A stretch of 64,000 bases of DNA, taken from a virus (lineage: Duplodnaviria > Heunggongvirae > Uroviricota > Caudoviricetes). Where the stretch lies: the IMG/VR virus record IMGVR_UViG_3300027819_000007, positions 83,787 to 147,786 of that record; one strand, 5' to 3'. The translations under genes and the position numbers were made by a program. The notes under the pieces are model-generated. The model searched no databases and was not told the DNA's origin. It worked only from the letters and a program-made list of their open reading frames with translations. Each line of letters starts with the position of its first letter. Within the stretch, counting starts at the first letter, position 1. Below are positions 9,863 to 30,974 of the stretch, in pieces.

Positions 9863-10135
9863 TCACTTCCATTCCTGGGCTTGCTTCTTCTCCCCTTCAA
9901 CATACTCCAACTTGGCGACCCTGATTTCCTCATCGGGCATTTCTTCCTTCAGTCGTTTCATCAAGGTCTTGCGGTAGATCCCCCACCAGTCACGGTCGGT
10001 TGGTTCAGAAGGTGTTTCCATTGCTTTCACATCCTGCTGCATTCCCGCTTCACGAATTTTCTCTACTTCTTTGAGAGCTTCTTCCTGCTCAGGAGAAATA
10101 TCAATGTCTCGTCCATCATACTGTGAGTAGTTCAC
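9863..10135 (-). CDS. hypothetical acidic small protein
   Basis: 90 aa, charged. Its start overlaps the stop of the 1071-aa ORF. Confidence 0.35.
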   Translation of the reverse strand: MNYSQYDGRDIDISPEQEEALKEVEKIREAGMQQDVKAMETPSEPTDRDWWGIYRKTLMKRLKEEMPDEEIRVAKLEYVEGEKKQAQEWK

Positions 10136-13100
10136 GATTTCTTTTTCACTTTCTTATAGAAATATTGGAGATATTCGTTAAATGCTTTCATACATTTGGA
10201 GTCTTCTCGCAGGTCAAAATACATGCGGTTGGTACTTCCATTCTTCCACCACCAATCTCTACCTTCCTGAGTTGCCATTACATCAAGAATGTCTTTAGCG
10301 TTTGGAAACTCTTTGCGTAAGTCTTTCTGAAGCGTTTCCGGTTTGATGTCGGAAATTCGACAGTTATATCCGAAACGTGGCCAAACCCAATAACCGATGT
10401 CTGGACGTTGCTTACCTTTATTATTAGCGGGGTTATTCCAGTCCCAATCAGGAGTTTCTCGCCGTGCCGCACTACAACGAATCCTTCGGAAATTCCTCTC
10501 CTGTGCAGCAAAAACTTGTGAGGAGAAAATGGGGAACCCAACACCACTTCCCATTGGAACGTGCGGTTTGAGATAGAAGGTGTTATTGTAAAGTTCCAGT
10601 TCCCCCTTCTCATTCTTGAAAATCTCTCGTTCCATTGTGAAGAGTGGGTTGTTAACGAAAATCGTAACGTGGGACTCGTTACTATCAGCAGGGGGGTAGT
10701 AATCAATAGTAACTTCGGAATCTGGATCTTCTGCTCCGGTGAGTGTAACCACTCCGGGTATATTCAGACCTAAATCCTTGATGGCTTGACGCACCAATTT
10801 ATGGTTCTTCTCTGATCCTCCAAAAGAGACTTGTGCCTCAGTACGTTCCCCATCTTCATCTATCTCTTCGGTTTCAAAAGTTTCTTGCGATGGATGTCTA
10901 CTAGGAGGTGAGGTCCTTTCCCCATGAGGAGGATTGATTTGCTGTTGTGTTTCTTGTTGCTGCTGTTGCTGAATAAGTTGTGTGGTGTCAACAATTTGCT
11001 GATGTTCTGCATCGAGAACTTCAGGAATGGAATTCCCGCGTTGAACCAAATCCTGAATTGTAGAGATTGTTTCTTCAGCGGTAAGAAAATGTCCTACTCC
11101 AATCTCACCGAAAATCTGATCATAGATTGCTTTCATATGATCCCATTCTTCATTTTCCGCCAAGGAGGACAACTCAGAAGAATCTCGTTGGAGAAGATTT
11201 CTCATATCCTCTACCATACTATCCAATGACTTACTCTTCCAGTTGATACCACTGCTTCTTCGTCCAGCATCGTTCTCAGCTTCTACTCGCTCCATGACAA
11301 AACGGTCTCCCACACCAAGGAGACACGTTTCACAAAGGTTCTCATTGCCCTTCTCACACACTACGTCATACTCATGGAGTCTGGCTCCACAACCAAAACA
11401 CACTCCTTCTTCTCTTGTGTATGTTTTGAAGAAGGGACTTGGTTTAACTCTTAAGTTCTTAATGGTCTTAGGTGATGTCTTCGTCAAATCAATGAAAGGA
11501 GTGAAAGGAACTACCAAACCCTTGCTGTTCTCCTCCGGGTACACATCTTCATTGGCAATACCACCTTCTACCTCCTGACTAGCTTCCTCTCCTTCTGGAG
11601 TAGCTTCCTCTTGTTGTGGTAATGGAGAAGCCCCTATACCAAGATAGTCATCCATTGCCTGATCGTCAGCTACTACCTTCAAGGCTTCTGCGGTTTCATC
11701 TTCTGGGGGCTGGGGCTGGTCCTTTACCAGTCGATCGGCAATTTGGAGTGCTTGATTTTCATCTTCGGTTTTGGAAAAGGCCATAGCTAAGGCAGAAAGA
11801 TACCACTCCGGATTCTTGGCAGAATTTAGTTTGTTGGCCAGGGTAGTAGCAAAGTCACCTTCTCCCTTTTGGTGGTAGGGGAGATCCTTGGCATCCCACT
11901 CTGGCTCTCCTTCCTCACCTTCTTCCTCAACAGCATCTCCCACTCCGGCCAGGAATTCTTCCGCCCGCATTTGCAACTCCGTAAATCGTTCTAACTCCTC
12001 TTCCTGAGGAATTCCATAGTCGGAAGGGGAGTTAACCGCATCCCATACTTCTTCGGAAAGCTCTGTATTCCCGGCTTCCATCAAGTCAGCAGCTAGTTGT
12101 TCAAGGTGTTCCCAATCGAAGTAAGGAGCATTTTCGTTGACATTCCTGCCAAATTGGTCCAAGGCTTTGATCCCTTCCGTATCATCTTCATCATCAAGAA
12201 GACTTTCCAACCACTTTATTTGTTCTTCGTAGGTTGGTACAGTGTCCATACCTTCCGGTAAAATAACTTGTCCATCACTATCCAAACTGACAAGACTCAG
12301 AGACAAACACTCTTCTAACAAATCATCCCTATAGCCCCAATCTCTATTAAGAGTGTTTCTTACATTGTAAGTTTTGGAATACCTCTCTACGGTGTTGTCA
12401 ATGGGATCACCTTCAATCTTAGCAATAAGGTGTTCCAACTCCTCAATCTCATTGCGGATTAGCCCCGCTACTTGATCACTATAGGTTCCTGGCCGACCCA
12501 TAGACTCTATGTTCTCTTCTAAAAGTTCTACACTTAGCATCAAACGTCTAGCAACACCATAGTCATCGGTACTTAGTCCTACTCTTCTAGCATCTTCCAA
12601 CAGCTCTCGGATATACTCAATGTCGAATATTTCTCCCTCTGCAATTTCATCATCAGGATTTCTCCTAACGTCATAAGCCTTGGAAAAATCTCCTGTTGAG
12701 TGATCAATGGGATCACCTTCTGCTTGAGCGATGAGTCTTTCTGCTTTGCCAATCACGCCCCTCTCAACATAATCCACTATATTTGAACCCATTACAGAAT
12801 TATCTGTTCCTGGGTGGTTATGAAAGTGGTTATACCAACTTCTTAGACTCACAATCTCATTGGAGTCTCCCAATCCAAGATTTTCAGCATCCCCTATCAA
12901 TTCATTCATATACTCTACGTCGAAGACAACTGATCCATCTGCATTTGTCCTATTGTAAGTCTTCACCCGTGGAGCAACTGGCTTCCATCGCTTAGTGTGG
13001 ATTTTGGAGGGATGTAGTGAACTTTGTTTTGGATTCATCCCTTGTGAGTAGCCACGCTGTCGTTGCATTTCCTGATTGACCACTTGTTCCAAATAAGTAG

Positions 13101-13347
13101 TGATTTGTGACAAGGTTTCTTCATCCAAACTTCCTGGTTGAAGTCGGAAGCAACGTAGTAAATCTTGTTCTATTTGTCCAGGAGAGAACGATCCTTGCTC
13201 GATAGAGTACAAAACACTTTCCACGAACTTGTCTGCATATTGTTCGTTGAGCATGGAATCATCGATGATTTGATGAACAGCTTGAGTGATATTGTTCTTC
13301 TGTTCGTTAGTAAGTTCAATGGGAGTGAAATTACTATTTTCCATCAC
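10132..13347 (-). CDS. large virion-associated protein (minor head/internal protein candidate)
   Basis: 1071 aa. Has an internal duplicated segment ('DVEYMNELIGDAENLGL' and 'IFDIEYIRELLEDARRVGL'), a poly-Q tract and a CxxC pair. Located between the giant ORF and the protease gene. Confidence 0.5.
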   Translation of the reverse strand: MMENSNFTPIELTNEQKNNITQAVHQIIDDSMLNEQYADKFVESVLYSIEQGSFSPGQIEQDLLRCFRLQPGSLDEETLSQITTYLEQVVNQEMQRQRGYSQGMNPKQSSLHPSKIHTKRWKPVAPRVKTYNRTNADGSVVFDVEYMNELIGDAENLGLGDSNEIVSLRSWYNHFHNHPGTDNSVMGSNIVDYVERGVIGKAERLIAQAEGDPIDHSTGDFSKAYDVRRNPDDEIAEGEIFDIEYIRELLEDARRVGLSTDDYGVARRLMLSVELLEENIESMGRPGTYSDQVAGLIRNEIEELEHLIAKIEGDPIDNTVERYSKTYNVRNTLNRDWGYRDDLLEECLSLSLVSLDSDGQVILPEGMDTVPTYEEQIKWLESLLDDEDDTEGIKALDQFGRNVNENAPYFDWEHLEQLAADLMEAGNTELSEEVWDAVNSPSDYGIPQEEELERFTELQMRAEEFLAGVGDAVEEEGEEGEPEWDAKDLPYHQKGEGDFATTLANKLNSAKNPEWYLSALAMAFSKTEDENQALQIADRLVKDQPQPPEDETAEALKVVADDQAMDDYLGIGASPLPQQEEATPEGEEASQEVEGGIANEDVYPEENSKGLVVPFTPFIDLTKTSPKTIKNLRVKPSPFFKTYTREEGVCFGCGARLHEYDVVCEKGNENLCETCLLGVGDRFVMERVEAENDAGRRSSGINWKSKSLDSMVEDMRNLLQRDSSELSSLAENEEWDHMKAIYDQIFGEIGVGHFLTAEETISTIQDLVQRGNSIPEVLDAEHQQIVDTTQLIQQQQQQETQQQINPPHGERTSPPSRHPSQETFETEEIDEDGERTEAQVSFGGSEKNHKLVRQAIKDLGLNIPGVVTLTGAEDPDSEVTIDYYPPADSNESHVTIFVNNPLFTMEREIFKNEKGELELYNNTFYLKPHVPMGSGVGFPIFSSQVFAAQERNFRRIRCSAARRETPDWDWNNPANNKGKQRPDIGYWVWPRFGYNCRISDIKPETLQKDLRKEFPNAKDILDVMATQEGRDWWWKNGSTNRMYFDLREDSKCMKAFNEYLQYFYKKVKKKS

Positions 13348-16300
13348 TGCACCTTCTTCAGTTTATCGAGGTTGAGGTATTTCCCTACGTCATCCGGAGG
13401 TATTTTCTTGGCGAGTTTGACCAACTCACTAGCGGACAGAGTTCCCCTACGATCTTCGGTATCGATCTTTTCCAATACCCTTCCAGTAAGTTGTTGGTCA
13501 ATTTCATCATGTTCCAGCATTTGCAACACTCTTGAAGTGGTGTTCTTAACCACGGAGTTATCCTTGTCCGTACCTTCCCCATTCATGATATGATGGATAG
13601 CTGCTTCATAGTGTTGTTTGTTGTCCAGGTGGAAATCCTCATCACTAATGATACCACGCATTGCCCTCCCCAAGAAGGATTCACCACTAGCCTTTTCCAT
13701 CTCAGCAATCTTCTTTAACCTTCCCTGAAGGGGTTGTTGAAGTCGGTCCATATAGTCCAGAGGTTTCTTAGGCTCCTTCTTCCTTCGTTCACGAGTAGGA
13801 ATGGGTCGAAGTTCCTCTTCCTGTTCCACTTCTAAGTTTTCTGGCTTCAAGGTTCCTTCCAGGTAGTTATCCATCTCAGAAGCTTTGAGGGTGCCATAAC
13901 CTGCTTCACTAAGGTTCCTCAGAATGGCTTCCTTGTGTTGCTGGCTAATGTTACCACTCTTCAACTCATTCAGGACATTGGCACGAGTAGCCTTCATGTA
14001 GGAGAGGTTAGTTCTCTTGGCGTTCTCCCTGTTACGGTTAATGTCCCTCAAAGCTTCCTTGTAACGCTCACTATGAGTGATGGAAGAGTAAGCCAACACT
14101 CCGTTGATAAGTCTATCGGTGAAGGAGATACCTGTACCTTCTTCGGCTAGTTGGATACGATCCATCCGTTGTTGGAGTTCTTTCATGGGAGCTAGTTTTT
14201 TCTTCTGTTCAAGATTTTCCAGAATAGCAATTACCAGCCCATGCTTCTTGAGTTTACTGGTTCCTTTGATTCCTAGCTTGAAAGCTATCTTGTCTAGTCC
14301 TGATTTAAGTAGACCACCCCTCTTCATTGAGGAGGTTTGTTGGATTTCCTCCATCAACTGGTCAAACTTCTGAACATCTCCCTGTGATTCGGCCTGTCTC
14401 ACCTTACGGGTAACGTCCTCATGGTTTACCTTTTGAGGCTTAGGCTTAGGCTCCTTCTTGGGTTTCTTGGGCTTAGAGGCTTCTTCCCGTGGAGGACACT
14501 TCACTCGTTTTCCATCGTCAGTGCAGTAACGATAACCACGTCGGTCCTTACGTTCCTTGAGTTCTTTGGTGACATGAAACAAACCACTTGCTCGCAAAAG
14601 TCTTTCGAGAGGAAATCCCATCTTGACTTGTGGTGGGGAAAGGAATTTGGTGAAGTCTTGTACTTCTTTGTCCATATCTTCTTTAGGCATAATCCACAGA
14701 TCAATCAACCCCTTCATAAAAGGCCAAATTCTCCCGTCTTTATTGGCTTCGTCATTGTCTCGATATTTCAACACTTCCCAACCACGAATCATGAACCAGT
14801 CTGCTGCCGCTTCTGGTATGATGAAATCAGGATCATTTTCAGGCTTGTTGAAGGAAATGTACATCGCACCTTTAATATCACCACTCCTACCATAATGTCG
14901 AACTGTTAGTCCAAACTGCTGTGCAAAACTACTTACATCATCTTGAAGGTTTTTCCTTCTCCACTGCAAAGTTCCACTCTTGACGTTGGGAGCTAGGAAA
15001 CGAAGTGGAAGGGGATGAGATTTATTTCCTCCTTGCAATTTCTCTTGACGCTCCTCAGCACTTTGAATCAAATCTTCCAATTCATCTTCGGGGCTTTGCC
15101 AACCAATACTAGTTCCTTGCAAAGATTGAATCCAACTGCTAGCATATCCCTCCGCATCAATACTTCTGTTTTCATGGTAGATGTCTCCAAAGAGTACATT
15201 GGCAGTTTCCAACAAATAATCATGCAGTTCTTCCCAGGCTTTTTCCTTAAACATCCCTCGTACTAAATCTCCATTGAATTGGAAGTGGGACTTCTTGTGG
15301 GAGGATAGAGATTTAGTGTCTTTGGGAAAGAACATTCGGATGCGACTGTTTTTGTGGTATTGGGTCATATGTCGCATGGGGGAATATCCACGCTCCTCAA
15401 ACCAATCCTCAATTACTTCTTTTGGAGCCATTGGAACGGGGTTTTGTTCTTGGCCTAAATATTCCAACTTTTCGGAATACTTACTAGGCCACGCTTCATA
15501 GTTAAGAACAAGCTCAATGTGACCAACATGTCTTCTCCAGTTGAAATCATAAAATCCAAATTCATTGACAAAATCCCAGGAGTGTCTTCCTAGATTTTTG
15601 TGGTGAACACCATCGAGAGGAGTAAATTTTTTTCTCTTCTTTCTGTTCAAAGAAAATTCTGCATCTCTTACAATAGCTCCTCCTGTATCATTATTGATCC
15701 AGGACATAGATTTGTACCTATTATCATTTGCCCATATTTCCAACAACCTTCTCTCATCCCACACGTCTGAGGTTCCTAGATAGGAGTTAATCTCATGAAG
15801 AGTAGGATGATACACAACCCCAACTTGAACATCCGGTGGGAACCCTTGATGAACCAATGCTTCCTCTACCTGGGCGGATGTTGGAATTGTAACTGAACCG
15901 ACCCTGCCTTGTAAAATTCCTACTTGGATTGGCATTTCCACTTCTGGTGCTGTCTCTCGTTTACCCCCCGAACCCCCTAACAATTGATATTTGATTGGAA
16001 AATGAACAGTTTGCTTACCTTCTTCAAAAGGGGATAAGAAAGCATACTCTTCTCTTCGCATTGCTCGTCGTAGTTTATCAATACCAGGATAGCCTGCTTC
16101 CTCGGCTGCATCGGTGATTATTTCAAAAGGAACTTGATCTGTAATCATGTTGAAAACAGTTTTTGCGGTTGGTTTTTGAATGGCCTTAGCATAGTATGCC
16201 TTACTGTTCTCTGCAATGAATCCTCTTTTCACACGAGGGAGAGTAGGAATGGATTTCCCTCCATAGCCATAATATTCCTCAGGGAGAATGGCATCATAAA

Positions 16301-18212
16301 CTGCAATATCTTTGTTTACCAATCTCCCGGTTCCTCCATATCTCCTACCAGGGGGAAGAAACTTCCTCTTATCATGAAAACCAGTTTTCATTACGTCATC
16401 GAATTTCCTCAAAACTCTTGCAAAATGATATTCATCTTCAGGAGACTTAACGGAGTTTTCAAATTCTTGTATCCAAGAGTCAGCAAATGTTTCGGGAGTT
16501 AGGTATTGATTATTTTGATAAAAACTACCCCAAGTCTTCGTAGCTAACTCCATCAAATAGTCTCGAAGTATTCCCCAATCCTCATCCTTTATCATGTCTT
16601 TCACAATATTGATAGAATAACCAATTGAATTCCCTTCCAAGTGCGAGTGGTATTCTATCTGGAAGTCCTTAACAGCTTCTCTAAGTTGTCGTTCTGCCTG
16701 ACGATGCCTTTCGTTCAAAAATCCCCATCGAGGGTCTTCTCTAATTTCCTCACCAAATCTTCCAACCTCACTATCAAATTGTGCCAACCCTTCCTTGTTA
16801 AAAGCATCGGCTAGGTCATTAGCTGCTTGAACTGCTTTGTCAACATCCTCTTCCCGATAGGCTTCGGAGATTGAGTTCTGAGTTTTGCCAGCAGCCACAA
16901 TTCCATCTACCGAAGTTAAGTAGTTGGAATAACTCCTAAGTGTATCTTGTACTTCCTTGTAAAGTCCCCCAATCAGAAGTTGGATGATGGAATGGTCCTC
17001 TCTCCCACTCATCCAACTGTCCAACGACCAACGGAAGGACTTTTGGTTGGAACCACCTGTCAAGCGTTTCCTTCCTAGGAAGGGAGATGCCTTGACATGG
17101 GGAATTTCCATTCCATGTTCTTCCCAATCATCCTCCTCATCCTGTTCCATTTCTCCGGGAGATAAGTCAGAGAACAAACCACTTTCAAAAGCATCCTGAG
17201 CACAATTTTCACACATCAACGTGCCAGTTTCATCCTGCATATCAATACGGTAAAGGGATTGACTTCCCGTGTGGGAGCAATGACTTTCTCCAGGATGAAC
17301 TGGACAGCCAGGATCGCTACATTCACAAGGTGAAGGAAGAGGAGGAGACTCATTTCCTGGCTTGGCTCCGAATTTGATGAAAGTTCCATCATCTAAAGTG
17401 AGAACGAATTCTGTGTTTTTAATTGAGTCCGTTCTAGTATATCCAATATCAGTCCATCCCCAACTTGACATTTCATCATCGCCTGGATAAATATAATCTG
17501 GTATATTTCCATTTTCACTCATCAATTTTTCTATATCGTCACTACTCATCGTCGGCGAGTTGATGTAGTAAATCTGAAGTTGTTCATGCTCTTGAAGGTA
17601 GTCCCAAGCTTCCTCTGCTTCCATATCCTCCCAACGATGGGGAAGGGCTTTTACATCATGAATTCCTCTTCTTTCACTGTGGGGGGTTCCTTGAGGGGCA
17701 TAGATATGAAAGAGAGCATAGATTTGGTCTGCAAGACGTTCCTGTTGATCAATCGACAACTCGTTATATCCATCACCAAACCAAATTTCTATAAGTGCTC
17801 GAATTGACTCGCGAGTTGCTTTCCACCCACCTGGATGACCTTGATATCCTGGTCCACTTGTGAAAAGGGCATTAACGAACATTCGTCGTTGAGGCTCACT
17901 TCTCCTATCCCTAGGCATCCCCGAAAATTCATGATGGATAAGAGTGGTCAACTCACGTTTCAAATCATCTTCCGTTAATGCTTTCTGATACACTCCTTCT
18001 TGCAACTCTTTGGCACACTCTTGCAACCTACTGAACTTAATCTTAGGTTCAATGTCCTTTTGGAACTCCTGACTAGACTGAATAATCTCGTCGAAGGAGA
18101 TGTTGGAAGGAGCCAACTCCTTTTCCAATCGTTCGGCTTGTTCCTTGATTTGGGACAAGGCTTCAAACTTCTCGGCAAAAACATCACTTGTGGCCATTAT
18201 GAACTTCCTCAA
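13344..18212 (-). CDS. giant protein (1622 aa), putative internal virion/ejection protein
   Basis: Uninterrupted 4.9-kb ORF with start/stop overlapping neighbours. Contains a Cys/His cluster ('CECSDPGCPVHPGESHCSH..CENCAQ') and a Lys/Pro-rich linker. No recognisable enzymatic motif. Confidence 0.55.
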   Translation of the reverse strand: MRKFIMATSDVFAEKFEALSQIKEQAERLEKELAPSNISFDEIIQSSQEFQKDIEPKIKFSRLQECAKELQEGVYQKALTEDDLKRELTTLIHHEFSGMPRDRRSEPQRRMFVNALFTSGPGYQGHPGGWKATRESIRALIEIWFGDGYNELSIDQQERLADQIYALFHIYAPQGTPHSERRGIHDVKALPHRWEDMEAEEAWDYLQEHEQLQIYYINSPTMSSDDIEKLMSENGNIPDYIYPGDDEMSSWGWTDIGYTRTDSIKNTEFVLTLDDGTFIKFGAKPGNESPPLPSPCECSDPGCPVHPGESHCSHTGSQSLYRIDMQDETGTLMCENCAQDAFESGLFSDLSPGEMEQDEEDDWEEHGMEIPHVKASPFLGRKRLTGGSNQKSFRWSLDSWMSGREDHSIIQLLIGGLYKEVQDTLRSYSNYLTSVDGIVAAGKTQNSISEAYREEDVDKAVQAANDLADAFNKEGLAQFDSEVGRFGEEIREDPRWGFLNERHRQAERQLREAVKDFQIEYHSHLEGNSIGYSINIVKDMIKDEDWGILRDYLMELATKTWGSFYQNNQYLTPETFADSWIQEFENSVKSPEDEYHFARVLRKFDDVMKTGFHDKRKFLPPGRRYGGTGRLVNKDIAVYDAILPEEYYGYGGKSIPTLPRVKRGFIAENSKAYYAKAIQKPTAKTVFNMITDQVPFEIITDAAEEAGYPGIDKLRRAMRREEYAFLSPFEEGKQTVHFPIKYQLLGGSGGKRETAPEVEMPIQVGILQGRVGSVTIPTSAQVEEALVHQGFPPDVQVGVVYHPTLHEINSYLGTSDVWDERRLLEIWANDNRYKSMSWINNDTGGAIVRDAEFSLNRKKRKKFTPLDGVHHKNLGRHSWDFVNEFGFYDFNWRRHVGHIELVLNYEAWPSKYSEKLEYLGQEQNPVPMAPKEVIEDWFEERGYSPMRHMTQYHKNSRIRMFFPKDTKSLSSHKKSHFQFNGDLVRGMFKEKAWEELHDYLLETANVLFGDIYHENRSIDAEGYASSWIQSLQGTSIGWQSPEDELEDLIQSAEERQEKLQGGNKSHPLPLRFLAPNVKSGTLQWRRKNLQDDVSSFAQQFGLTVRHYGRSGDIKGAMYISFNKPENDPDFIIPEAAADWFMIRGWEVLKYRDNDEANKDGRIWPFMKGLIDLWIMPKEDMDKEVQDFTKFLSPPQVKMGFPLERLLRASGLFHVTKELKERKDRRGYRYCTDDGKRVKCPPREEASKPKKPKKEPKPKPQKVNHEDVTRKVRQAESQGDVQKFDQLMEEIQQTSSMKRGGLLKSGLDKIAFKLGIKGTSKLKKHGLVIAILENLEQKKKLAPMKELQQRMDRIQLAEEGTGISFTDRLINGVLAYSSITHSERYKEALRDINRNRENAKRTNLSYMKATRANVLNELKSGNISQQHKEAILRNLSEAGYGTLKASEMDNYLEGTLKPENLEVEQEEELRPIPTRERRKKEPKKPLDYMDRLQQPLQGRLKKIAEMEKASGESFLGRAMRGIISDEDFHLDNKQHYEAAIHHIMNGEGTDKDNSVVKNTTSRVLQMLEHDEIDQQLTGRVLEKIDTEDRRGTLSASELVKLAKKIPPDDVGKYLNLDKLKKVQ

Positions 18213-18330: not shown

Positions 18331-18798
18331 TCATGCAGGCTGGAAGAATCCAGAAATCTCAGGAGTGTAGCACACGGTGAATGCAGCCGTTCCGGAAGCT
18401 GCGGGACAAGCGATAAGTCCAGAGAAGAAAACAATATCCACAGTCTGGGGAGCACCCGGCTGCGAACCAGTCAAAAGATTACCAGATCCACCCACTGCCC
18501 AAACAGGAGGAATAACTCCCACTACTTTATGCCCGGAGTTGACCAAAGGCATACCAGACGTGGCAACCGGCACTGCGTCCACAAAGTAAACTGGAGCACC
18601 TGAGTTGATGTTAGTCGTCACCAGGATGGAGTTCAATCGTCCACCACCAGAGAAGATAATGGTGGTGGAATTAACCCCGGACAGGGCAGAGTAGGTCTGG
18701 AGTCCACCACGATTCCAGGCCACAGCTCCATCGTAAAGGTTCCCTGAGTGGACGTTGGCCCCTGCCATACGCATCGGATTCTTAGTCGTCAAACTCAT
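18331..18798 (-). CDS. Gly-rich putative structural protein
   Basis: 155 aa; Gly/Ser/Val-rich beta-like sequence. Confidence 0.4.
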   Translation of the reverse strand: MSLTTKNPMRMAGANVHSGNLYDGAVAWNRGGLQTYSALSGVNSTTIIFSGGGRLNSILVTTNINSGAPVYFVDAVPVATSGMPLVNSGHKVVGVIPPVWAVGGSGNLLTGSQPGAPQTVDIVFFSGLIACPAASGTAAFTVCYTPEISGFFQPA

Positions 18799-18992
18799 CG
18801 TTTCTGTTCCTCTATTCCGTGAAGGGTAGAGCAGTATCCCGGCCTGGCCATAAGACCCCCACAGGAATGAAACAATTCACCCCTGCTTAGCTGCGGGCTT
18901 CACTCCCACTTCATTAAATGTATTTTACTAGATGTGATTGAATTATGTCAAACGAGATGTGGCAGAAAGGCTGGTTGTAATTATGGAGACTT

Positions 18993-19769
18993 GTGAGTAC
19001 AATAAGGTCGAGAATGGTGGGGGAGCATGACTTCCCCCACCATCCCCTCGCCAACAAACTATGTCCTTCGTGGAGAACACGGTCTGTGACTACCAATAAG
19101 TTTAGCGATCTATCCCACCTAAATCAATTCTTCGAGCCATACCACCCCAATCAACATCCCTACGTCTATCTGATTTGTCGAGTTTCTTCACCCAGACAAG
19201 AGATGAACGGCACCTTAGCCAAACATCGGAAGTATCTGATGGAAGATGCTAGTTCTAGTATTATTCGCGGAGTGAACTGTTACGTCGGTCCCTCCACACA
19301 ACGAGAATGGTACAAACACCTCACTAATTCCTCAATCATAGCCAAGGAACTCAATTGTGTTCTCCTGGCCTATTGTGTTGACCGATACATAAGACCAGGA
19401 GGCTGGAGTGTACAACATCCCGAACACTATCCTACCCTTGAAGAACTGAACCACCTCAAATCATGTGTTGGGGGTATAAACATGGCTACCGTACTCCCAC
19501 CCAGCAGTCCCTTCCAATTCGTCAAATCAATCCAAGGTAAGAAGGAGAAGAAGGAACGAGTACCTTCACCTTGCTTCCAGGATCAACGTAGAGAGAAGTG
19601 GTATGATTTCGTATTAGATCAACGTCAAAAGGGTTGTACACTATGTCAGATACGAGATCACATCAATAAGGCAGAAGGTGGGAATTACATAAGCCATGTT
19701 ACGATTGACAAGTGGACCAAAGAAGTAGGTAGCCGAAGCACAAGATTGAAGAGAAGAGGTTGCAAATAA
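18993..19769 (+). CDS. serine recombinase-like protein (resolvase/invertase family), N-terminally extended
   Basis: Only substantial plus-strand ORF. 'YVYLICRVSSPRQE' matches the catalytic 'Y.RVS...Q' serine-recombinase motif, and 'VLLAYCVDRYIRPG' matches the conserved 'DRl.R' segment. The catalytic Ser lies unusually far (~aa 65) from the annotated start. A strong hairpin (19011-19040) lies over the 5' end of the ORF. Confidence 0.45.
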   Translation: MSTIRSRMVGEHDFPHHPLANKLCPSWRTRSVTTNKFSDLSHLNQFFEPYHPNQHPYVYLICRVSSPRQEMNGTLAKHRKYLMEDASSSIIRGVNCYVGPSTQREWYKHLTNSSIIAKELNCVLLAYCVDRYIRPGGWSVQHPEHYPTLEELNHLKSCVGGINMATVLPPSSPFQFVKSIQGKKEKKERVPSPCFQDQRREKWYDFVLDQRQKGCTLCQIRDHINKAEGGNYISHVTIDKWTKEVGSRSTRLKRRGCK

Positions 19770-19892
19770 GGTAGGTAAAAGGATTTAAACTTTACTATAC
19801 AAAGTGTATTTTCTCCCCCATAGCAGAAGTACCATCAAACCTAGTCTTTTACCTTGTTTTCTCTACTTTTGGGGTAGGACTACCAATATAAC

Positions 19893-19999
19893 GTTACCTT
19901 ACCTACCTTTTCATGCAAATTGGTGTCCTTTTTGTACCTCTTCAATCTACACCCCAAGGGGGTTATTAGGAGAAGGGATACTGCAAGGTTCCCAACTAC
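19893..19999. repeat. direct repeat copy 1 (~105 bp) with conserved internal hairpin
   Basis: Begins 'gttaccttacctacctttt'. Shares long identical blocks with copy 2 ('ccttcttgtac.tctcaatcta', 'aggttcccaa.tac'). Contains the hairpin ccccaagggg at 19952-19961. Confidence 0.7.
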
Positions 20000-20112
20000 T
20001 TTTAGCTTGTTTTCTAGCTAACTGTTATACGATCTCTATCTATAGAACTCAACTAACCCATTTTGGGGAACTTGATACTCTTAGGGAGAGTATGTATTCG
20101 TTTACTCTAGCA

Positions 20113-20215
20113 GTTACCTTACCTACCTTTTAGTCATAGCTTGGCATCCTTCTTGTACTTCTCAATCTAGTTCCCGAAGGGCTAGGAGAGTTGTCACAGT
20201 AAGGTTCCCAATTAC
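20113..20215. repeat. direct repeat copy 2
   Basis: Same 19-nt leader 'gttaccttacctacctttt'. Has the hairpin cccgaaggg in the equivalent position (a structure-preserving change from copy 1). Confidence 0.7.
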
Positions 20216-20337
20216 ATTTCCAGATGATGATGATGATGTAAACAGTTATTCATCAATTATTCATCAAAACAACCATTTCCGACGACCGAAGGGAGGAGGA
20301 ACATGAGCCACGAAGTGGCGAAATGCCAGGACATTGA

Positions 20338-20610
20338 TCACTTTTGATAACTTGTTTCATACACCACAACTCCGTCTTCTTGATATTGCTTTTCTAACAA
20401 ATCAAGATAAGTGAAATCATTACCTATGATATCATTCAAATAATGACAAACTCTACCACATCTAGTACTCCCCATGAAGTGAAGATAAGCAAATCTTTCA
20501 TAACCTCTTTCACACAAAAGATCATGCAAGGGAGGCAAGGCAGTTTCATCACCATCCTGGTATGCTTTGGCTAAAGCTTGAAGTGGAGTCATGGTGTTAT
20601 TCCTTGGCAA
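20338..20610 (-). CDS. hypothetical protein, family A (paralog of 23708..24019)
   Basis: 90 aa. 'MTPLQALAKAYQDGDETALPPLHDLL' aligns with 'MTPHQTLVMLAKALKEGDESARQPLYDLWL' in the paralog. Confidence 0.45.
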   Translation of the reverse strand: MPRNNTMTPLQALAKAYQDGDETALPPLHDLLCERGYERFAYLHFMGSTRCGRVCHYLNDIIGNDFTYLDLLEKQYQEDGVVVYETSYQK

Positions 20611-21304
20611 GTAGTAAATCCAAAACCCAGCAGCCCCTCACATGAGGATCGAAAGATTGTTCCCATCCAAATCCACTTGTCCTGGAACAATAAGTACATG
20701 GAGAAATTTCCTTACCTAGTGATTTCCACTTGGCTCCTGTACCGTCACACTGAGAACATACTTTCCATCCTCGACAGTGTCTCAAGATGTTCTCATTCGT
20801 GCAGTCTGCCTCCTCCAGCATATCTCCCAGGATGGGCATCATGGTAAAATCCCTGGATTGGTATATTTCCTGAGCAAGATTAGGAATAGTTTTACCGTTC
20901 CAAGTGAGCCAGCGGACATTGAATGATGTATCTGGTTTTCTAGTGATGTTCTGGTCCCAATCATACTTCTCCACGGGACACCACGGATTCCCGAAAATGT
21001 CCCTCAACAATGAGGCTCGTTCTGCAAAAGTTGGTTTATTCCTTCCAAATTCCGTCCATCCCCTAGCCCATCCTTCGTCGGAGTATTCTGTTCCACACTC
21101 ACTACTCATTCCGTCTTTCTCATAACCCTCTACTACTTCCAATGCTGTTCCTTGTGCTAAGCAACATGCACAGGCATACAGCCTTAACTTTCTATCACTT
21201 GCTGTAGAAGGACGCCAGGCTCCATATTGAGCTTCTCGTCCTTCCAACAGCCACTCCAGCATCTTGGTAGGGATTTCACACTTCAACCATTCGGTTTCAG
21301 TCAT
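20597..21304 (-). CDS. hypothetical protein, family B (paralog of 21894..22553)
   Basis: 235 aa. Shared C-terminus 'ILGDMLEEADC...RGCWVLDLLLAKE' versus 'ILADALEESGC...RGCWVLDLLLGKE'. CxxC pairs present. Confidence 0.5.
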   Translation of the reverse strand: MTETEWLKCEIPTKMLEWLLEGREAQYGAWRPSTASDRKLRLYACACCLAQGTALEVVEGYEKDGMSSECGTEYSDEGWARGWTEFGRNKPTFAERASLLRDIFGNPWCPVEKYDWDQNITRKPDTSFNVRWLTWNGKTIPNLAQEIYQSRDFTMMPILGDMLEEADCTNENILRHCRGWKVCSQCDGTGAKWKSLGKEISPCTYCSRTSGFGWEQSFDPHVRGCWVLDLLLAKE

Positions 21305-21930
21305 AGTTGTTTTCCTTCTGATGGTGATAAGTTTGCTAGTTCTCGACCTTGAGCAACTAACTTTTCGGAAAAGGCATTTCGTAGTGAAGGTCTCCCAATC
21401 CCATCAATTTTCGTTATGGGGAACAAAGAGAACATTTCTTTAGCATACTTATTGAAATTTTCCATTGTGGTTCGCCACAGGAAGGGGAAACCTCGATGGA
21501 CCATTAATACTTCAACTCCTCCTATCCATCCTTCTTGGATTGTCTTCCCTCGTTCCAAAACACATGGAAAAGGAGTAGAAAACCACTCTTCATAACTTAC
21601 ATACTTCGCTGCCCAGAGGTCCATCACTTGGTCATTTTTGGTGAGATACTGCTTGCAGTTCTTACAGAAGGAAGATTTATCCTTGGGCCAATATAAATTC
21701 TCACCACATGAATACATGAACTGATCACAACCATACTTCCCTGACGCTAGTTCTACTTCCAATCGTAAGAATTGAGCCTGGTTCTGTTTACCCTGCTCCT
21801 CTAACCAATCGGAGTAAACTAGTCTCACTTCATCATCATGAGGATTTTCTAAGATGGCTCTTAGCAGTTGTTTTCCCGTGGTAGTCATGAGAATTACTCC
21901 TTTCCAAGCAAGAGATCCAAAACCCAGCAT
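21301..21930 (-). CDS. protein with N-terminal repeat-companion-like 'RLVYSDWLEE' domain, family C
   Basis: 209 aa. N-terminus 'LLRAILENPHDDEVRLVYSDWLEEQGKQNQAQFLRLEVEL'. Paralog of 22956..23711, with the shared C-terminal block 'AKEMFSLFPIT'. Confidence 0.5.
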   Translation of the reverse strand: MLGFGSLAWKGVILMTTTGKQLLRAILENPHDDEVRLVYSDWLEEQGKQNQAQFLRLEVELASGKYGCDQFMYSCGENLYWPKDKSSFCKNCKQYLTKNDQVMDLWAAKYVSYEEWFSTPFPCVLERGKTIQEGWIGGVEVLMVHRGFPFLWRTTMENFNKYAKEMFSLFPITKIDGIGRPSLRNAFSEKLVAQGRELANLSPSEGKQL

Positions 21931-22553
21931 CCTCGCCAGTGGAGTTGATCTTGTCGTAAGTGACCTATCATTTCCGGAATATCACAACCACTCTCTTCCA
22001 AAGCATCTGCCAGGATAGGAAGTAACTCCTGGTCCAAGGTTCCTTCAAGGTTTCGTTTTTCTTCAATCTCTTTCGCAAGATAAGTAACAGTAGAGTTATT
22101 CCAGGTCAACCATTCATTCCTGATCATGGCATAAGGTGGTGTCCACATTCCATGTTGCTCCATATCCCACAAAGGAGATTTTCCCTCTTGCTGAATGATG
22201 GGTTTGAAAGGATTTCCGATCACATCGTGAAACATCCTGGTAAGATTAAGAAGGTAAGTAGCATGAGGGACCAGATAATCTCTGCCAATCCTATCCAAAT
22301 ATTCCCAGGTGGAGGAATGATGTACTTCCCCTGAATTCTCTGCCCAATGCAAATTATCTTTTTGGATATCACAATTTTCACTTCCGAATGCCAGCCACCA
22401 TATATGAGCAGACAACCAACGCATCTTTCTCGTGGAAAGAGTTCCTAAAGGAGGAATATCCTTTTGACAGGATTGCACAATCCAACTGATTATCTCCTTC
22501 GGATCGGTAAGGGAGAGCCACTTCTCTTCATTCATGGTAGTTACCAAGGTCAT
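21894..22553 (-). CDS. hypothetical protein, family B'
   Basis: 219 aa paralog of 20597..21304. Confidence 0.5.
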   Translation of the reverse strand: MTLVTTMNEEKWLSLTDPKEIISWIVQSCQKDIPPLGTLSTRKMRWLSAHIWWLAFGSENCDIQKDNLHWAENSGEVHHSSTWEYLDRIGRDYLVPHATYLLNLTRMFHDVIGNPFKPIIQQEGKSPLWDMEQHGMWTPPYAMIRNEWLTWNNSTVTYLAKEIEEKRNLEGTLDQELLPILADALEESGCDIPEMIGHLRQDQLHWRGCWVLDLLLGKE

Positions 22554-22683
22554 TGAGTCACTCCTTGAGTTCCAAGCCTACTTTACGGAGCATGGTAATA
22601 ATATCATCCACGGTTACTTGACCAATGTTGACAATAGACAACAGTTTCTTCCTTCCTAGGTTAGCAATATCCTCCACCGTCAC

Positions 22684-23040
22684 TTATCCCGTTTCCTTCC
22701 TCAACAGATAAGCAACATGTCGATGCATACTTCTTACACGATAAGGAGGGAACTGGTTGGTGAATCTTCTATAAGAAAACTCAGTCCACTTCATAGGGAG
22801 GAAAGAGTTAGGATTAATCCCTCCCAAGGTAGCCAATACCTCTACCAAAGAAGTAGTGTCAGATGTTTCCATGAGGAGGTCAGCCAGGGCATGGACCGCT
22901 ACCATGTCCTTCTCACTTTGAATAGCCTGAAGTAAGGCTCGAACATTTTGAGACATCATTTGGTTTTGTCCTTGGTAAAGTCTAGAGGAGGAAGGTTCAC
23001 TAAACCTCTTCCATAGTTCACACATTGTTGAGACAACCAC
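22684..23040 (-). CDS. hypothetical protein
   Basis: 118 aa ORF; its 3' end overlaps the start of the next ORF. Confidence 0.3.
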   Translation of the reverse strand: MVVSTMCELWKRFSEPSSSRLYQGQNQMMSQNVRALLQAIQSEKDMVAVHALADLLMETSDTTSLVEVLATLGGINPNSFLPMKWTEFSYRRFTNQFPPYRVRSMHRHVAYLLRKETG

Positions 23041-23711
23041 TTCTCTGCTTCAAGGAGAGTGAAAAATACAGGAGATCGTCCTACCCCTTTGGCATACCTT
23101 GATTTCTCGATTTGAACAATCTCTGCCGGAATGTTGTACGATGAGTTAGGTATCTCCTTCTTTCGAATAGGTCGAAATGCTCTCCAATAGTAAATCCGTT
23201 CTTCGGTTCCTCTTTTCGGTCCTTCAAAATGGTGTTGTATTGCCACAAGAGGATTCTTATCAATCAATCGAACTTCTGTAATGGGATGTAAAGAGAACAA
23301 CTCCTTTGCATGGTTAAGAAATTCCTCGCAAGGAAGGTGGATCCTAAAAGTAAATCCTCTCCTCCATTGCCAGGACCATTGAGAAATAGTCTCTGGGAAA
23401 TGTTCCGGAAGTATCCACCAGCTAAACCCCAAACCAGATAATTGGATTTGCCTCATTTTCAACGGTTTGTTTTCGTGCATATCCAGAACACACTTGCCAT
23501 TGTGATGCTGCCGTCCACTTCCTTCCTTAACGCACCTTCCACATAGGCACTGAGAACGAAGTTTGTCTACCTGCAACTCCACTCGAATGAATTCAGCACG
23601 GTCTTGCTGTCCATTCTCTTCCAGCCAGTCTGAATAGACGAGACGAACATCATCATCATAAGGATCTTCCAGAATGGCTCGGAGGAGGGATTCTCCGGTG
23701 GTGGTAGTCAT
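22956..23711 (-). CDS. protein with N-terminal 'RLVYSDWLEE' domain, family C'
   Basis: 251 aa. N-terminus 'LLRAILEDPYDDDVRLVYSDWLEENGQQDRAEFIRVELQV', followed by a Cys-rich middle region. Confidence 0.5.
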   Translation of the reverse strand: MTTTTGESLLRAILEDPYDDDVRLVYSDWLEENGQQDRAEFIRVELQVDKLRSQCLCGRCVKEGSGRQHHNGKCVLDMHENKPLKMRQIQLSGLGFSWWILPEHFPETISQWSWQWRRGFTFRIHLPCEEFLNHAKELFSLHPITEVRLIDKNPLVAIQHHFEGPKRGTEERIYYWRAFRPIRKKEIPNSSYNIPAEIVQIEKSRYAKGVGRSPVFFTLLEAEKWLSQQCVNYGRGLVNLPPLDFTKDKTK

Positions 23712-24019
23712 GAATACAAACTCCTCAACTCATCTTCAGAATATCTTAGAACGTTATCCAACAAAGCACATTGGGCTGGTCCGATGTTACAACCATGCCA
23801 CTTCCTCTTTCGTAAGTGGGTGGTGACATGATCTTGTCTCAATCCCATCTCCAACCACAGGTCATAAAGTGGCTGTCGTGCCGACTCGTCTCCCTCTTTC
23901 AATGCTTTGGCTAGCATCACTAAAGTTTGGTGTGGTGTCATTTTTTGTATGCTCCTACGTTGGCAGTGCAATACTGAATACAACTCCCAAAGTTCATGGC
24001 ATTGGTACGACACTGACAC
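23708..24019 (-). CDS. hypothetical protein, family A'
   Basis: 103 aa paralog of 20338..20610. Confidence 0.4.
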   Translation of the reverse strand: MSVSYQCHELWELYSVLHCQRRSIQKMTPHQTLVMLAKALKEGDESARQPLYDLWLEMGLRQDHVTTHLRKRKWHGCNIGPAQCALLDNVLRYSEDELRSLYS

Positions 24020-24546
24020 TCATATTGATCATAAGGATTACAGTGGAGGTCCAGCCACTCAGCAATGATCGGCCCACTAGAAATATGAGAAGTGGTTTCA
24101 TAGAACATAACGCGATGACCATTGAGGATGCTCCAAAAGAAAGCAACATTAATGGGACTTCCAAGAAAGTAACCTACTCTGACAAAACACCCTGGATTCT
24201 CCTCTTTCCAGGTAAGATGATATCTTGGACTTTTGGTTATTCTTTCGTCATTCTCTCGCCATAAAGTTATCATCTCAAAGCTTGTTGCCTCTATGACATA
24301 TTCTGTCTGAGCAAATCTCTTATCTAGCTCTTCCTTCTCCACGGAAGGAAGGATAGAGGTAATGAACTCTTTGACCAAAGAAGGGTTTTCTTCTACCCAA
24401 TCTAGGAGAGCATCCTGTGTAGCTGGACAAAACGGATCGTGTCCCAGGCCACGGAGGAGAACAATTGCATTCTCAATGTCTTTGATTTTCTTGGTGGGCA
24501 TAATTCTTCTTCCTGGTGAAATAAAAATGACGTGGGTGTGAGCCAC
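23938..24546 (-). CDS. hypothetical protein
   Basis: 202 aa ORF; no recognisable motif. Confidence 0.4.
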   Translation of the reverse strand: MAHTHVIFISPGRRIMPTKKIKDIENAIVLLRGLGHDPFCPATQDALLDWVEENPSLVKEFITSILPSVEKEELDKRFAQTEYVIEATSFEMITLWRENDERITKSPRYHLTWKEENPGCFVRVGYFLGSPINVAFFWSILNGHRVMFYETTSHISSGPIIAEWLDLHCNPYDQYECQCRTNAMNFGSCIQYCTANVGAYKK

Positions 24547-24580
24547 GTCATAAAGTAGAATTACATTCTCTTCCCGTTCA

Positions 24581-28772: not shown

Positions 28773-29582
28773 CTACTCCATCTTTGGTTCTGCTCCTTGG
28801 AAGATCACTTCAGGACGATTGACTACCTTTCCAAATGGTGGCATCTCCACGATCTTCACATCACTCCGTTCGATCATCAAATCTGGATTGGTTCTTGCTT
28901 CGTGTTTAGTAGGCAAACTTTCCAACTCTTCACTAGTGAACTTTCTGGTGGTAACTTGCTTTTGTACAAAAGTTCCACGCTTGAAGAATGGTAAATAGTC
29001 ATTCCAATTGATACCACGACCAAATAACATCTCCTGCATTTCGGGACCATTCTTGTTGTAGAGTTCCTTGTGACTAAAAACGGATTGGGCTGCCATAGAA
29101 ATGGAGTTTCGAGTAGCATCCTGCTCCCGCCACAAGAATACGTTAACCCCTTCCACTATGTTGGGAACATTCCATACTCGACAATCGAAGTGAGCAATGG
29201 GTAAATTCATCAATGGAAATCTGGAGGGGACATGTTTGTTGAACCATCCCGTACACAAAGAAGACAACACTGATACCATCTTCTGAATTTTGCCATCGAA
29301 GAAGATTTGACTTTTGAAGTCGGTACTGTGCCAAGCCAAAGTGATTTCATCCGACTGCACGTATCCCATACAAGCATTGGTTTCTTTGACAAGGTAAATC
29401 GTGGTGTCAATCATAAGGGCAGAAAGTCGCTCATCGTAAGGACGTTCCATCCCCCTGGTCCAGTTGTGGAAGTTCTTTCCATCAAGACGAGCAAAAGCAG
29501 GGAGGAGAGGAATAAGTTTTCTTCTTGCTTCCATCCCTTCATAAAGCTTCATACGTTCACCAAAATCAGTTGTATCTGCCAT
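28773..29582 (-). CDS. Thg1-like protein (tRNA-His guanylyltransferase family, 3'-5' nucleotidyltransferase)
   Basis: 269 aa. 'FARLDGKNFHNWTRGMERPYDERLSALM' matches the Thg1/TLP N-terminal signature ('R.DG..FH.F......KP.D'). Lies immediately upstream of a four-tRNA cluster. Confidence 0.65.
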   Translation of the reverse strand: MADTTDFGERMKLYEGMEARRKLIPLLPAFARLDGKNFHNWTRGMERPYDERLSALMIDTTIYLVKETNACMGYVQSDEITLAWHSTDFKSQIFFDGKIQKMVSVLSSLCTGWFNKHVPSRFPLMNLPIAHFDCRVWNVPNIVEGVNVFLWREQDATRNSISMAAQSVFSHKELYNKNGPEMQEMLFGRGINWNDYLPFFKRGTFVQKQVTTRKFTSEELESLPTKHEARTNPDLMIERSDVKIVEMPPFGKVVNRPEVIFQGAEPKME

Positions 29583-29608
29583 GTTGTTCTCCTAAAGGTT
29601 AGTACCAG

Positions 29609-29678
29609 TTGCAGACCCCGGAGTTGAACCGGGAAAGAGAAACTTATGAGGCTTCTCCAGGAACCGTCCAAGTCTGCG
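29609..29678 (-). tRNA. atypical tRNA-like gene, anticodon CAU (Met/Ile2-type) with C1:A72 mismatch and shortened D-arm
   Basis: Manual fold gives acceptor 5' cgcagac / 3' gtctgca, anticodon stem gaagc/gtttc, loop cucauaa, variable ucuuu, and T-arm cccgg-uucaacu-ccggg. The D-region is only 16 nt. Confidence 0.4.
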
Positions 29679-29683
29679 ATCAA

Positions 29684-29768
29684 TGACCAGAGTGGGACTC
29701 GAACCCACAAGCCCATAAAGAGCATCAGATCTTAAATCTGATGTGTTTCCCAATTTCACCATCTGGTC
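29684..29768 (-). tRNA. tRNA-Leu (anticodon UAA), type II with long variable arm
   Basis: Acceptor gaccaga/ucugguc, 3-bp D stem, anticodon loop uuuaaga, 16-nt variable arm, T-arm guggg-uucgagu-cccac. Confidence 0.7.
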
Positions 29769-29794
29769 ATAGACTGTTCTCAAGGTTTAAAGAA

Positions 29795-29866
29795 TGGGTT
29801 CAGTTGGAATTGAACCAACAACCGAAGGATTATGAGTCCTTTGCTCTACCATTGAGCTATGAACCC
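29795..29866 (-). tRNA. tRNA-Met/Ile2 (anticodon CAU), canonical
   Basis: Acceptor ggguuca/ugaaccc, D-arm gcuc-aauggua-gagc, anticodon arm aagga-cucauaa-uccuu, T-arm guugg-uucaauu-ccaac. Confidence 0.75.
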
Positions 29867-29869
29867 AAA

Positions 29870-29940
29870 GGCAACCCGCAGGATTCGAACCTACATCTTC
29901 CTCCGGAAAGGAGGTTGTCCTACCGTTAGACGAGGGTTAC
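29870..29940 (-). tRNA. tRNA-Glu-like (anticodon UUC)
   Basis: Acceptor guaaccc/ggguugc (one G-U), D-arm gucu-aacggua-ggac, anticodon loop cuuuccg, T-arm guagg-uucgaau-ccugc. The A27:A43 mismatch and C37 are slightly atypical. Confidence 0.55.
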
Positions 29941-30243
29941 GATAAAAAACTACTCCCACTTGCACCAGTCCAGGTCATCCCGTCTCTATCTCCCTCCTGT
30001 GGAGGTAATAACGACTTCGGGGTTTATAGACCCTTCTTCCCAATGTAGTTGAAAGTAGTTTGTCTATACAGAAGTATTAACATTCAACAACTTGCTAATG
30101 TATAAACAAAAATCTTGAGAATCCTGACAATAAAATAGAGATTCTCTGATTTCGTCAAGAATTTTAATCATATCTTTCTTACTCATAGATTCAAAATCTG
30201 GGCGACTTTCTTGTAAATCATTCATTACTTTATCTCTTCTTTC

Positions 30244-30519
30244 TTACAGTTCGTCTTCAGTCGCTTCTCGAAAATCTGAAGTATGCCTCATAACTTGAAT
30301 GTTACCGCTATCCATGTCTACTAACACGCAATGACCCGGAATGTTTCTTATTTCCGTGAGGAATATAAAGTGTTTCTGTCTTTTTTGTCCATACCCCAAA
30401 ACTCCGTAATATTTGATTCTGTCATATTCTGCTAGTTGGTTCCAATACTTCGGATTGAAGTTTTTGGGTTCAAACACCACCACCGTTCCAAGTTTGAATT
30501 TCTTTGGTTTCTTTTGCAT
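30244..30519 (-). CDS. hypothetical protein
   Basis: 91 aa basic ORF. Confidence 0.4.
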   Translation of the reverse strand: MQKKPKKFKLGTVVVFEPKNFNPKYWNQLAEYDRIKYYGVLGYGQKRQKHFIFLTEIRNIPGHCVLVDMDSGNIQVMRHTSDFREATEDEL

Positions 30520-30659
30520 GACTCATAACCTAGTGGTAAAATAAAGAGAAGTGTGGGATATGGTTTCCTTCGAGTTTTCTGCCGCCCTTAACTCCCCACT
30601 CCGGAGGAGCTACGAGTCGAAGCCGCTTCCCATTATGCGGATTCCCACACTTCTCTAAT

Positions 30660-30950: not shown

Positions 30951-30974
30951 AGTTGTACTCCTTGTTGATTTCCC

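Follow-up and report, generated by a model that had tools for sequence, protein, structure and literature searches.

We analysed a 64,000-nucleotide stretch of tailed-phage DNA (positions 83,787 to 147,786 of IMG/VR record IMGVR_UViG_3300027819_000007; hereafter the window), which is part of a genome of ~164 kb (163,635 bp) transcribed almost wholly from the minus strand. At positions 18993-20337 of the window lie a plus-strand gene of the serine recombinase family and, downstream of it, two non-coding direct repeats, each built around a long imperfect hairpin. Comparison of the repeat copies shows that the pairing of these hairpins is under selection, and the reading that we tentatively favor is that they act on transcripts at the boundary between two converging gene modules. 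No close relative of this phage was found in INPHARED or IMG/VR, and a metagenome scan returned a single contig, L007 (2.65 kb), which is syntenic with the window.

Layout of the locus

The open reading frame (ORF) at 18993-19769 is the sole plus-strand ORF of at least 150 amino acids in the window that no larger minus-strand ORF shadows; all other sizeable unshadowed ORFs lie on the minus strand. A preliminary description of this DNA had singled it out as the lone convincing plus-strand ORF with serine recombinase sequence blocks, and both blocks were found, RVSSPRQ at residues 63-69 and DRYIR at residues 130-134 (numbering of the longest form, 258 amino acids). The true start is probably the GTG at 19086, giving a gene at 19086..19769 (plus strand) for a protein of 227 amino acids, because a GGAG Shine-Dalgarno sequence stands at 19071-19074, L007 has an upstream in-frame TAA, and AlphaFold2 (AF2) assigns residues 1-31 a predicted local distance difference test score (pLDDT) below 50.

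A promoter-like site for this gene, TTGTAA-17-TACAAT (18975..19003, plus strand), keeps its hexamers and 17-nt spacing in L007 (TTGTAx-17-TACAAT) despite diverged surroundings. Directly after it, where the recombinase mRNA is predicted to begin, comes a 30-bp palindrome (19014..19043, plus strand) that forms a 12-bp-stem hairpin, ATGGTGGGGGAG-CATGAC-TTCCCCCACCAT, with fold z-scores of -2.9 in the window and -3.8 in L007 and two symmetric double compensatory changes between the two alleles. There is no second copy in the 64-kb window; strong palindromes are also found upstream of family homologues in the loci L009 (13-bp arms), L008, L015 and L018. By size and position, the palindrome fits a candidate operator or recombinase dimer site for autoregulation, or a 5′ stabilizing hairpin, and its symmetric change along with the allele offers a ready-made candidate protein-site pair. 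The bacterial homologues L015 (2948-2998) and L018 (1111-1153) also have in common a conserved upstream element, GCGGCRGCCGGTTGCGTCGCCCGC. Covarying inverted arms stand on either side of it and stop 3-5 nt short of the start codon; the arrangement resembles a cis-regulatory structure that covers the ribosome-binding site. We considered the recombinase gene itself as an invertible segment and rejected this for want of convincing inverted repeats on its two sides.

At the stop codon of the gene stands TAAGGTAGGTAA (19767..19778, plus strand), the reverse complement of the repeat-leader core. The array that follows, also given on the plus strand, begins with a decayed ‘unit 0’ (19837..19892), consisting of the leader-like CTAGTCTTTTACCTT and a remnant. 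Unit A (19893..20017) is made up of a leader (19893-19919), a hairpin (19920-19995) and the U-rich tail CTACTTTTAGCTTGTTTTCTAG (19996-20017); it is followed by the spacer of the 220-bp unit (20018..20112), which contains a 7-bp perfect hairpin (20075-20093), and by unit B (20113..20219), with its leader at 20113-20139 and the homologous hairpin at 20141-20211. That two homologous direct repeats with an identical 19-nt leader stand here had been noted before and holds good; with their extents now placed at 19893-20003 and 20113-20219 and a spacing of 220 bp, A and B are 73% identical over 113 columns (blastn E 1e-11; nhmmer 7e-34 and 2e-31), a homology far beyond chance. Reiterated TTACC pentamers are visible in the leaders. 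A 109-amino-acid ORF that spans part of the array (19804-20133) was rejected as coding, its start region being unconserved and a 190-bp indel falling inside it in L007. Directly after repeat B lies a (GAT)5 microsatellite (20222-20238) that is absent from L007.

Pattern, blastn, nhmmer and covariance-model searches revealed no further unit copies in the window or in 30 other loci; att-like copies, for which the preliminary description had proposed a search, were not recovered there, and the covariance model built from the units retrieved the local copies only. The leader and tail sequences are absent from IMG/VR, and the five matches to the leader in GTDB genomes, all in unrelated taxa, compare with ~4 expected by chance. 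Fifteen matches to a degenerate pattern in IMG/VR were judged not to be homologues.

Selection on hairpin pairing

The core of each unit is a ~77-nt imperfect hairpin of 24 bp, with the CCCCAAGGGG / CCCGAAGGG motif at its tip. Window units A and B (wA and wB) and the L007 unit L7_2 were each independently predicted to form the same four-helix hairpin, with 22 Watson-Crick and 2 G-U pairs in wA and 23 and 1 in L7_2. The tip had been described earlier as a compensated hairpin in its own right; CCCCAAGGGG versus CCCGAAGGG turns out to be an indel plus one substitution, and the part of that claim that stands is that the longer hairpin covaries, a signal that emerges only once the L007 copies are added. 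We scored pairing on five copies (four distinct) against the 24-pair structure, using slid partner columns and 500 shuffles as controls, and found pairing in 94.6% of cells; the slid controls reach 37-55%. Four pairs are altered on both sides, a level reached by 3 of the 500 shuffles. Between wA and L7_2, 11 substitutions fall in seven pairs and break none of them (P ~5e-6 under simulated random substitution), and between A and B the stems have changed by 11% and the loops by 37%. These comparisons show that the pairing is under selection, and they support the earlier suggestion of a selected structure more strongly than was visible when it was made. The compensatory signal is unusually clear for so few sequences, and it marks a structured element outside known families.

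U-rich tails follow three of the hairpins (A, L7_1 and L007 unit 0), and together with the selected pairing and the conserved linear leader they would suit a reading in which each unit is an independent small-RNA gene, the leader supplying a promoter or seed, the hairpin the body and the tail the terminator, with the array as a duplicated pair. We regard this as decidedly unlikely. B, L7_2 and L7_3 have tails that are not U-tracts, no sigma-70-type -35/-10 is conserved in the leaders on either strand (isolated 9/12 matches only), and there are no copies elsewhere in the 64 kb or in the other loci. Nor do the repeats match an Rfam family: the best matches in 19600-20500 have E >2 and are snoRNA noise, with only tRNAs passing in the window. 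A tRNA-like nature was also rejected, as ARAGORN reports nothing there.

A mosaic locus in the related contig

The window and L007 agree at 99-100% of positions in the flanks of the locus (18728-18960 and 20310-20560) and form a mosaic in the part between these flanks. Identity is 98-100% across 19902-20125, which takes in unit A, the spacer and the beginning of leader B, with the neighboring sequence replaced on both sides; breakpoints fall at TTACCTT leaders, at ~19855, ~19900 and ~20126. The repeats are thus conserved in a related genome, and their number varies, the array in L007 having three full units with a period of 221 bp plus a 190-bp ‘unit 0’ with its own hairpins and an CTACTTTTAGCTT tail. 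Homology also ends abruptly at the start of the 84-amino-acid gene beyond the array (window 20593 onward, L007 2214 onward), another mosaic breakpoint, and the next gene upstream of it is a 235-amino-acid ORF in the window and an unrelated ORF of >143 amino acids in L007.

The recombinase proteins of the two phages are 56% identical, with a nonsynonymous divergence (dN) of 0.36, a synonymous divergence (dS) of ~2.1 and a dN/dS of 0.17. On this comparison the gene is shown to be real and selectively maintained, and one long-standing allele, kept by selection, has been exchanged for another in a near-identical backbone. With dS ~2 inside flanks that are 99-100% identical, it makes a clean natural allele replacement.

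The same comparison bears on whether the units might be functionless tandem duplications, their palindromes kept by mutation rather than selection, through hairpin-templated quasi-palindrome correction. In favor of this, the units are confined to two related genomes, their copy number is unstable and the copy L7_3 has lost its outer helices. We nevertheless hold this to be quite improbable: the internal loops keep their positions in diverged copies rather than being corrected to a perfect palindrome, the changed pairs between wA and L7_2 were all kept, and unit A is conserved although both of its neighboring sides were replaced.

A divergent family of serine recombinases

Direct searches with the window protein yielded no match in Pfam, NCBIfam, PHROGs, PADLOC or PDB sequences, and a word-indexed search of 5.8 billion proteins returned only the protein itself. 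An exhaustive HMMER scan of 1.84 billion representatives gave 120 relatives of 210-260 amino acids, one of them the 56%-identical orthologue. Among 40 aligned relatives, R63, S65, Q69, R131 and R134 (R32, S34, Q38, R100 and R103 in the 227-residue numbering) are invariant and D130 is common. The resolvase domain PF00239 is matched by 20 of these 40 at E <=0.01; the window protein does not match it even at E <=1 and does not reach the Pfam gathering score. Other matches of the relatives are to HTH_23, HTH_28, HTH_38 and HTH_7, weakly in some cases to YneB-resolvase models, and, weakly in 18 of the 40, to NF033518 (IS607 transposase). A profile of the family matches IS607-like TnpA (2e-8), Bin3, Tn3 resolvase and TP901-1 integrase. 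In these alignments RVSS and DRxxR fall in register, RVSS..Q with ISC1926 TnpA and Bin3, and DRxxR with DRLTR and DRLGR.

AlphaFold supplied with the relatives’ alignment reaches a pLDDT of 86 (38 for AF2 from the single sequence) and predicts an N-terminal catalytic domain with the alpha/beta fold, a short helix E and a C-terminal three-helix helix-turn-helix (HTH) domain (residues 195-243, pLDDT >90). In the predicted structure, one 15-residue helix (174-188) lies between strand 4 and the HTH, and the family consensus is ~10 residues shorter than resolvases over the helix-E stretch (R71 to the arm). In the resolvase/invertase subgroup, helix E has ~35 residues and forms the dimer/tetramer interface. 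Large serine recombinases exceed 400 amino acids and carry a recombinase domain (PF07508) and a zinc-ribbon domain; the present protein of 227-258 amino acids has no PF07508 or zinc-ribbon domain, and no TnpB domains were found in the products of the neighboring 155-amino-acid gene and 84-90-amino-acid ORF.

Membership of the serine recombinase superfamily is thus supported through transitive homology, the family profile and the structure model, and the call made in the preliminary description was right at this level, with the catalytic serine present, aligned and invariant. We consider this very divergent protein to be probably an active recombinase. The relatives make up a sizeable clade (at least 120 clusters when grouped at 50% identity) of serine-recombinase-like proteins that are not annotated as such; their catalytic residues are intact, helix E is predicted to be shortened, and the phage members are missed by standard domain libraries. 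They occur in bacterial chromosomes, beside housekeeping genes, and in at least three unrelated large phages, one of these members being in L038, an unrelated 172-kb phage contig. At L038 3084-3266 the last 69 coding nt of the family gene are duplicated (74% identity) just past the stop codon, and AAAAGGTAGGTA follows. A 16-nt inverted repeat around the L038 homologue was discarded as within chance expectation (~0.6).

Repeats as possible target sites

The preliminary description had proposed that the repeats could be res- or att-like sites, and the view that the units or their leaders are DNA targets of the adjacent serine recombinase deserves a hearing, although we think it unlikely. Recombination between the direct units would add or remove 220-bp units, and recombination of the stop-codon copy with a leader would invert a 120- or 340-bp hairpin-bearing segment and so act as a switch. 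The units do adjoin a recombinase gene with intact catalytic residues, their number varies between near-identical phages with breakpoints at the leaders, and the leader is the best-conserved part of the unit. Moreover, AAAGGTAGGTA occurs in the window at the stop codon of the recombinase gene (plus strand) and, inverted, in the two leaders (minus strand), and nowhere else, and the 12-mer AAAAGGTAGGTA, the reverse complement of the leader core, is also present ~80 nt after the family homologue of L038. However, an exact 11-mer inverted match in 700 bp is expected by chance at ~6%, the L038 match is post hoc (~1%), and the stop-codon copy of the leader motif is degenerate in L007.

The form of the repeats also speaks against this view. 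The dimer sites on which known small serine recombinases act span 26-34 bp; the leader has no dyad, and no shared 12-bp half-site was found. When we looked for two or more dyad sites near the gene (as in res site I, hix or gix), only the dyad at 19014-19043 was present, with which the repeats have no half-site in common. The position of the units is downstream of the gene, and helix E, which is needed for a canonical tetramer, is predicted to be short. Three of four other family loci that were checked have no nearby repeats and the fourth (L038) has unrelated local duplications only; repeats comparable to the units were found at none of L009, L008, L015 and L018. Finally, unit A did not diverge along with the recombinase allele: it is 98-100% identical between phages whose recombinases differ at dS ~2, which is evidence against the units being co-evolving sites of this enzyme.

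A more radical version, to which we give the least credence of all, is that the short-helix-E clade (Planctomycete-type genomes and phages) uses folded hairpins, whether attC-like single-stranded sites or structured RNA, as recombination substrates or partners. Units that served as recombinase substrates would mean new biochemistry, and hairpin substrates in particular would constitute a new structure-directed site-specific recombination module that adds, removes or inverts 220-bp cassettes.

Stem-loop units where two modules converge

The array fills the only 1.5-kb gap in the minus-strand coding of the window, which is also its largest non-coding, strand-switch region. On the far side, the last gene of a minus-strand accessory operon (20338..20610, minus strand; 84-90 amino acids) converges on the array. 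On the near side, a sigma-70-like promoter (TTGACA-18-TAAAAT, 11/12; 18922..18951, minus strand), divergent from the recombinase gene and 99-100% identical in L007, would drive the 155-amino-acid gene and the giant-protein module. The array thus sits between convergent genes and just upstream of the strong, separate promoter of the virion/giant-protein module.

Both the recombinase gene and the array belong to an accessory island of ~5.8 kb (window 18799-24580), lying between a gene for a 630-amino-acid methyltransferase and the 155-amino-acid gene, and also containing two proteins with TIGR02996 domains (21301-21930 and 22956-23711) and several paralogue-like ORFs. The 155-amino-acid protein has 95 homologues. 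In L011, L012, L035, L036 and L037 the order is methyltransferase, 155-amino-acid homologue, giant protein, with the recombinase gene and repeats absent. The island of L009 at the same junction is a different one; it lacks repeats, and its family member, 23% identical, has the opposite relative orientation. TIGR02996 domains, in two neighbors here, are typical of Gemmata-type Planctomycetes. The five relatives without the island, the different island in L009 and the TIGR02996 proteins together point to an insertion hot spot and a Planctomycete-type host.

Our preferred interpretation, which we hold with a little less than even confidence, is that the units form a reiterated set of stem-loop cassettes by which transcripts are insulated or processed at this boundary between converging modules, their leaders serving as recombination breakpoints. 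The phage would have acquired the recombinase gene within a host-like accessory island; the gene would have its own promoter, with the 30-bp palindrome at its transcript start probably for autoregulation or mRNA stability. Where recombinase transcription meets the minus-strand operon, an array of ~220-bp non-coding cassettes (leader, hairpin, U-rich tail and spacer) would present hairpins, most likely as RNA, that are terminator, RNase-processing or 3′-end-stabilizing elements. These may stop read-through in one or both directions and so leave the modules insulated, and the repeated leaders would provide homology for the gain, loss and swapping of units. In favor of this are the selection for pairing, the variable copy number, the breakpoints at leaders, the placement between convergent genes and the U-rich tails, as well as the relatives without the island, which run straight from the methyltransferase gene to the 155-amino-acid gene. 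Three elements of this scheme are inferences: the RNA form of the hairpins, their role in terminating or processing transcripts, and the strand concerned. A role at the transcript level is somewhat more likely than a link as recombinase sites, and any functional connection between gene and repeats is putative.

Several observations weigh against this interpretation. Minimum free energy z-scores are ordinary (-0.1 to -1.5), a scan of 19770-20337 found no canonical intrinsic terminator, the basal helices are weak, and the U-tract begins 4 nt past the stem. The unpaired 19-nt leader, the best-conserved part, is unexplained by a pure hairpin model. The distinct copies number four and come from two closely related genomes, and apparent compensatory change could also arise by templated quasi-palindrome correction. 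On the plus strand, G-U cells exceed A-C cells by too little (~5 independent positions against 1) to decide the strand, and folding energy is equal on both strands.

Equal folding of the two strands would also be in keeping with hairpins that are DNA structures or protein-binding arrays unrelated to the recombinase, such as a replication priming site or origin, or nucleoid-protein or cruciform sites, and the position in the largest non-coding, strand-switch region and the TTACC reiterations of the leaders could be read the same way. We find this very improbable: cumulative GC skew has no inflection at 19-20 kb, no replication genes are adjacent, and distant relatives in the phage group lack the element, which therefore cannot be an essential origin.

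Other features of the phage

The window includes an HK97-type capsid gene (3409-4860) and a portal gene (60852-63596). A Thg1-like gene (28773-29582) directly adjoins five tRNA genes (Met, Leu, Met, Glu and Val; window 28773-31131). After the 155-amino-acid gene come giant proteins (1071 and 1622 amino acids; window 10132-18212) with no Pfam match; proteins at the same position in relatives (L011, L013 and L036) have 2′-5′ RNA ligase, PI3/PI4-kinase, topoisomerase IB or ADP-ribosyltransferase domains, which suggests a fast-evolving set of effector-like virion proteins.

Among the methyltransferase genes of relatives, a TnpB-like gene (Cas12f1-like_TNB) is inserted, and an Acb2/Tad1-hairpin (anti-CBASS/Thoeris-type) gene lies upstream of the same junction (L036 1587-3182 and L011 674-1012). 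Beyond the array, a micro-ORF of 14 codons (MSHEVAKCQDIDHF; window 20303-20347, plus strand) stands behind a strong Shine-Dalgarno sequence, AGGGAGGAGG, and overlaps the 3′ end of the convergent 84-90-amino-acid gene. It is kept in L007 (1923-1967) with one synonymous and one Ile-to-Val change.

Comparison with known systems

Small serine recombinases (gamma-delta/Tn3 resolvase, Sin, Bin3 and Hin/Gin) resemble the window protein in domain order, from catalytic domain to C-terminal HTH, and in fold; RVS..Q and DRxxR align with their R8, S10, Q14, R68 and R71, and the family consensus has a GGRP-type arm before the HTH. The ~30-bp palindrome just upstream of the gene also stands where resolvases autoregulate. 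In contrast to these enzymes, the window protein has no direct sequence match to them, its helix E is predicted at ~15 residues against their ~34, and the palindrome is single-copy, with no three-subsite res-like region and no hix-like pair. Tn3 res spans ~120 bp upstream of its gene and has three dyad subsites sharing a 12-bp motif, whereas each unit here is one continuous palindrome with a 24-bp stem plus a non-dyad leader, downstream of the gene.

Integron attC sites carry R and L boxes (GTTRRRY) and flank gene cassettes, and a tyrosine recombinase binds them in the form of a folded single strand. The units are like them in being imperfect palindromes of a similar class (~60-140 nt) arrayed by a recombinase gene, with structure better conserved than sequence, but the locus here has a serine-type recombinase, spacers devoid of ORFs and no such boxes. 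At lambda int-sib/tI, a long imperfect hairpin can be a terminator or an RNase III site, setting the stability of the recombinase mRNA. The likeness lies in a long imperfect hairpin a little over 100 nt downstream of a recombinase gene; lambda, however, has one hairpin where an array is found here, and no attP lies between gene and hairpin in the window.

For the catalytic domain, the best match in both sequence profile and structure is IS607 TnpA (PDB 6dgc and 6dgb), which binds multiple non-palindromic subterminal repeats (PMC6188088). Its MerR-like DNA-binding domain is N-terminal and tnpB usually lies alongside, whereas here the HTH is C-terminal, with no tnpB gene and no recognizable element ends.

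With regard to the array, the PeSLs of T4-type phages are reiterated promoter/stem-loop cassettes at which transcription terminates and through which modules of variable regions are shuffled (PMC2839356), and they are thought to prevent accessory-gene transcription from spilling into virion genes (PMC2839356, PMC4122927). PeSLs differ in being short, dispersed in ~50 copies per genome and equipped with a consensus sigma-70 promoter; here, two to four adjacent 220-bp units with a 77-nt hairpin and no recognizable promoter occur in local copies only. What the two share is reiterated intergenic stem-loops in a variable accessory part of the genome, at the breakpoints of insertion, deletion and replacement between close relatives. 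If the units are indeed insulators, they would widen the PeSL concept, that of mobile regulatory cassettes, to take in a very different group of phages.

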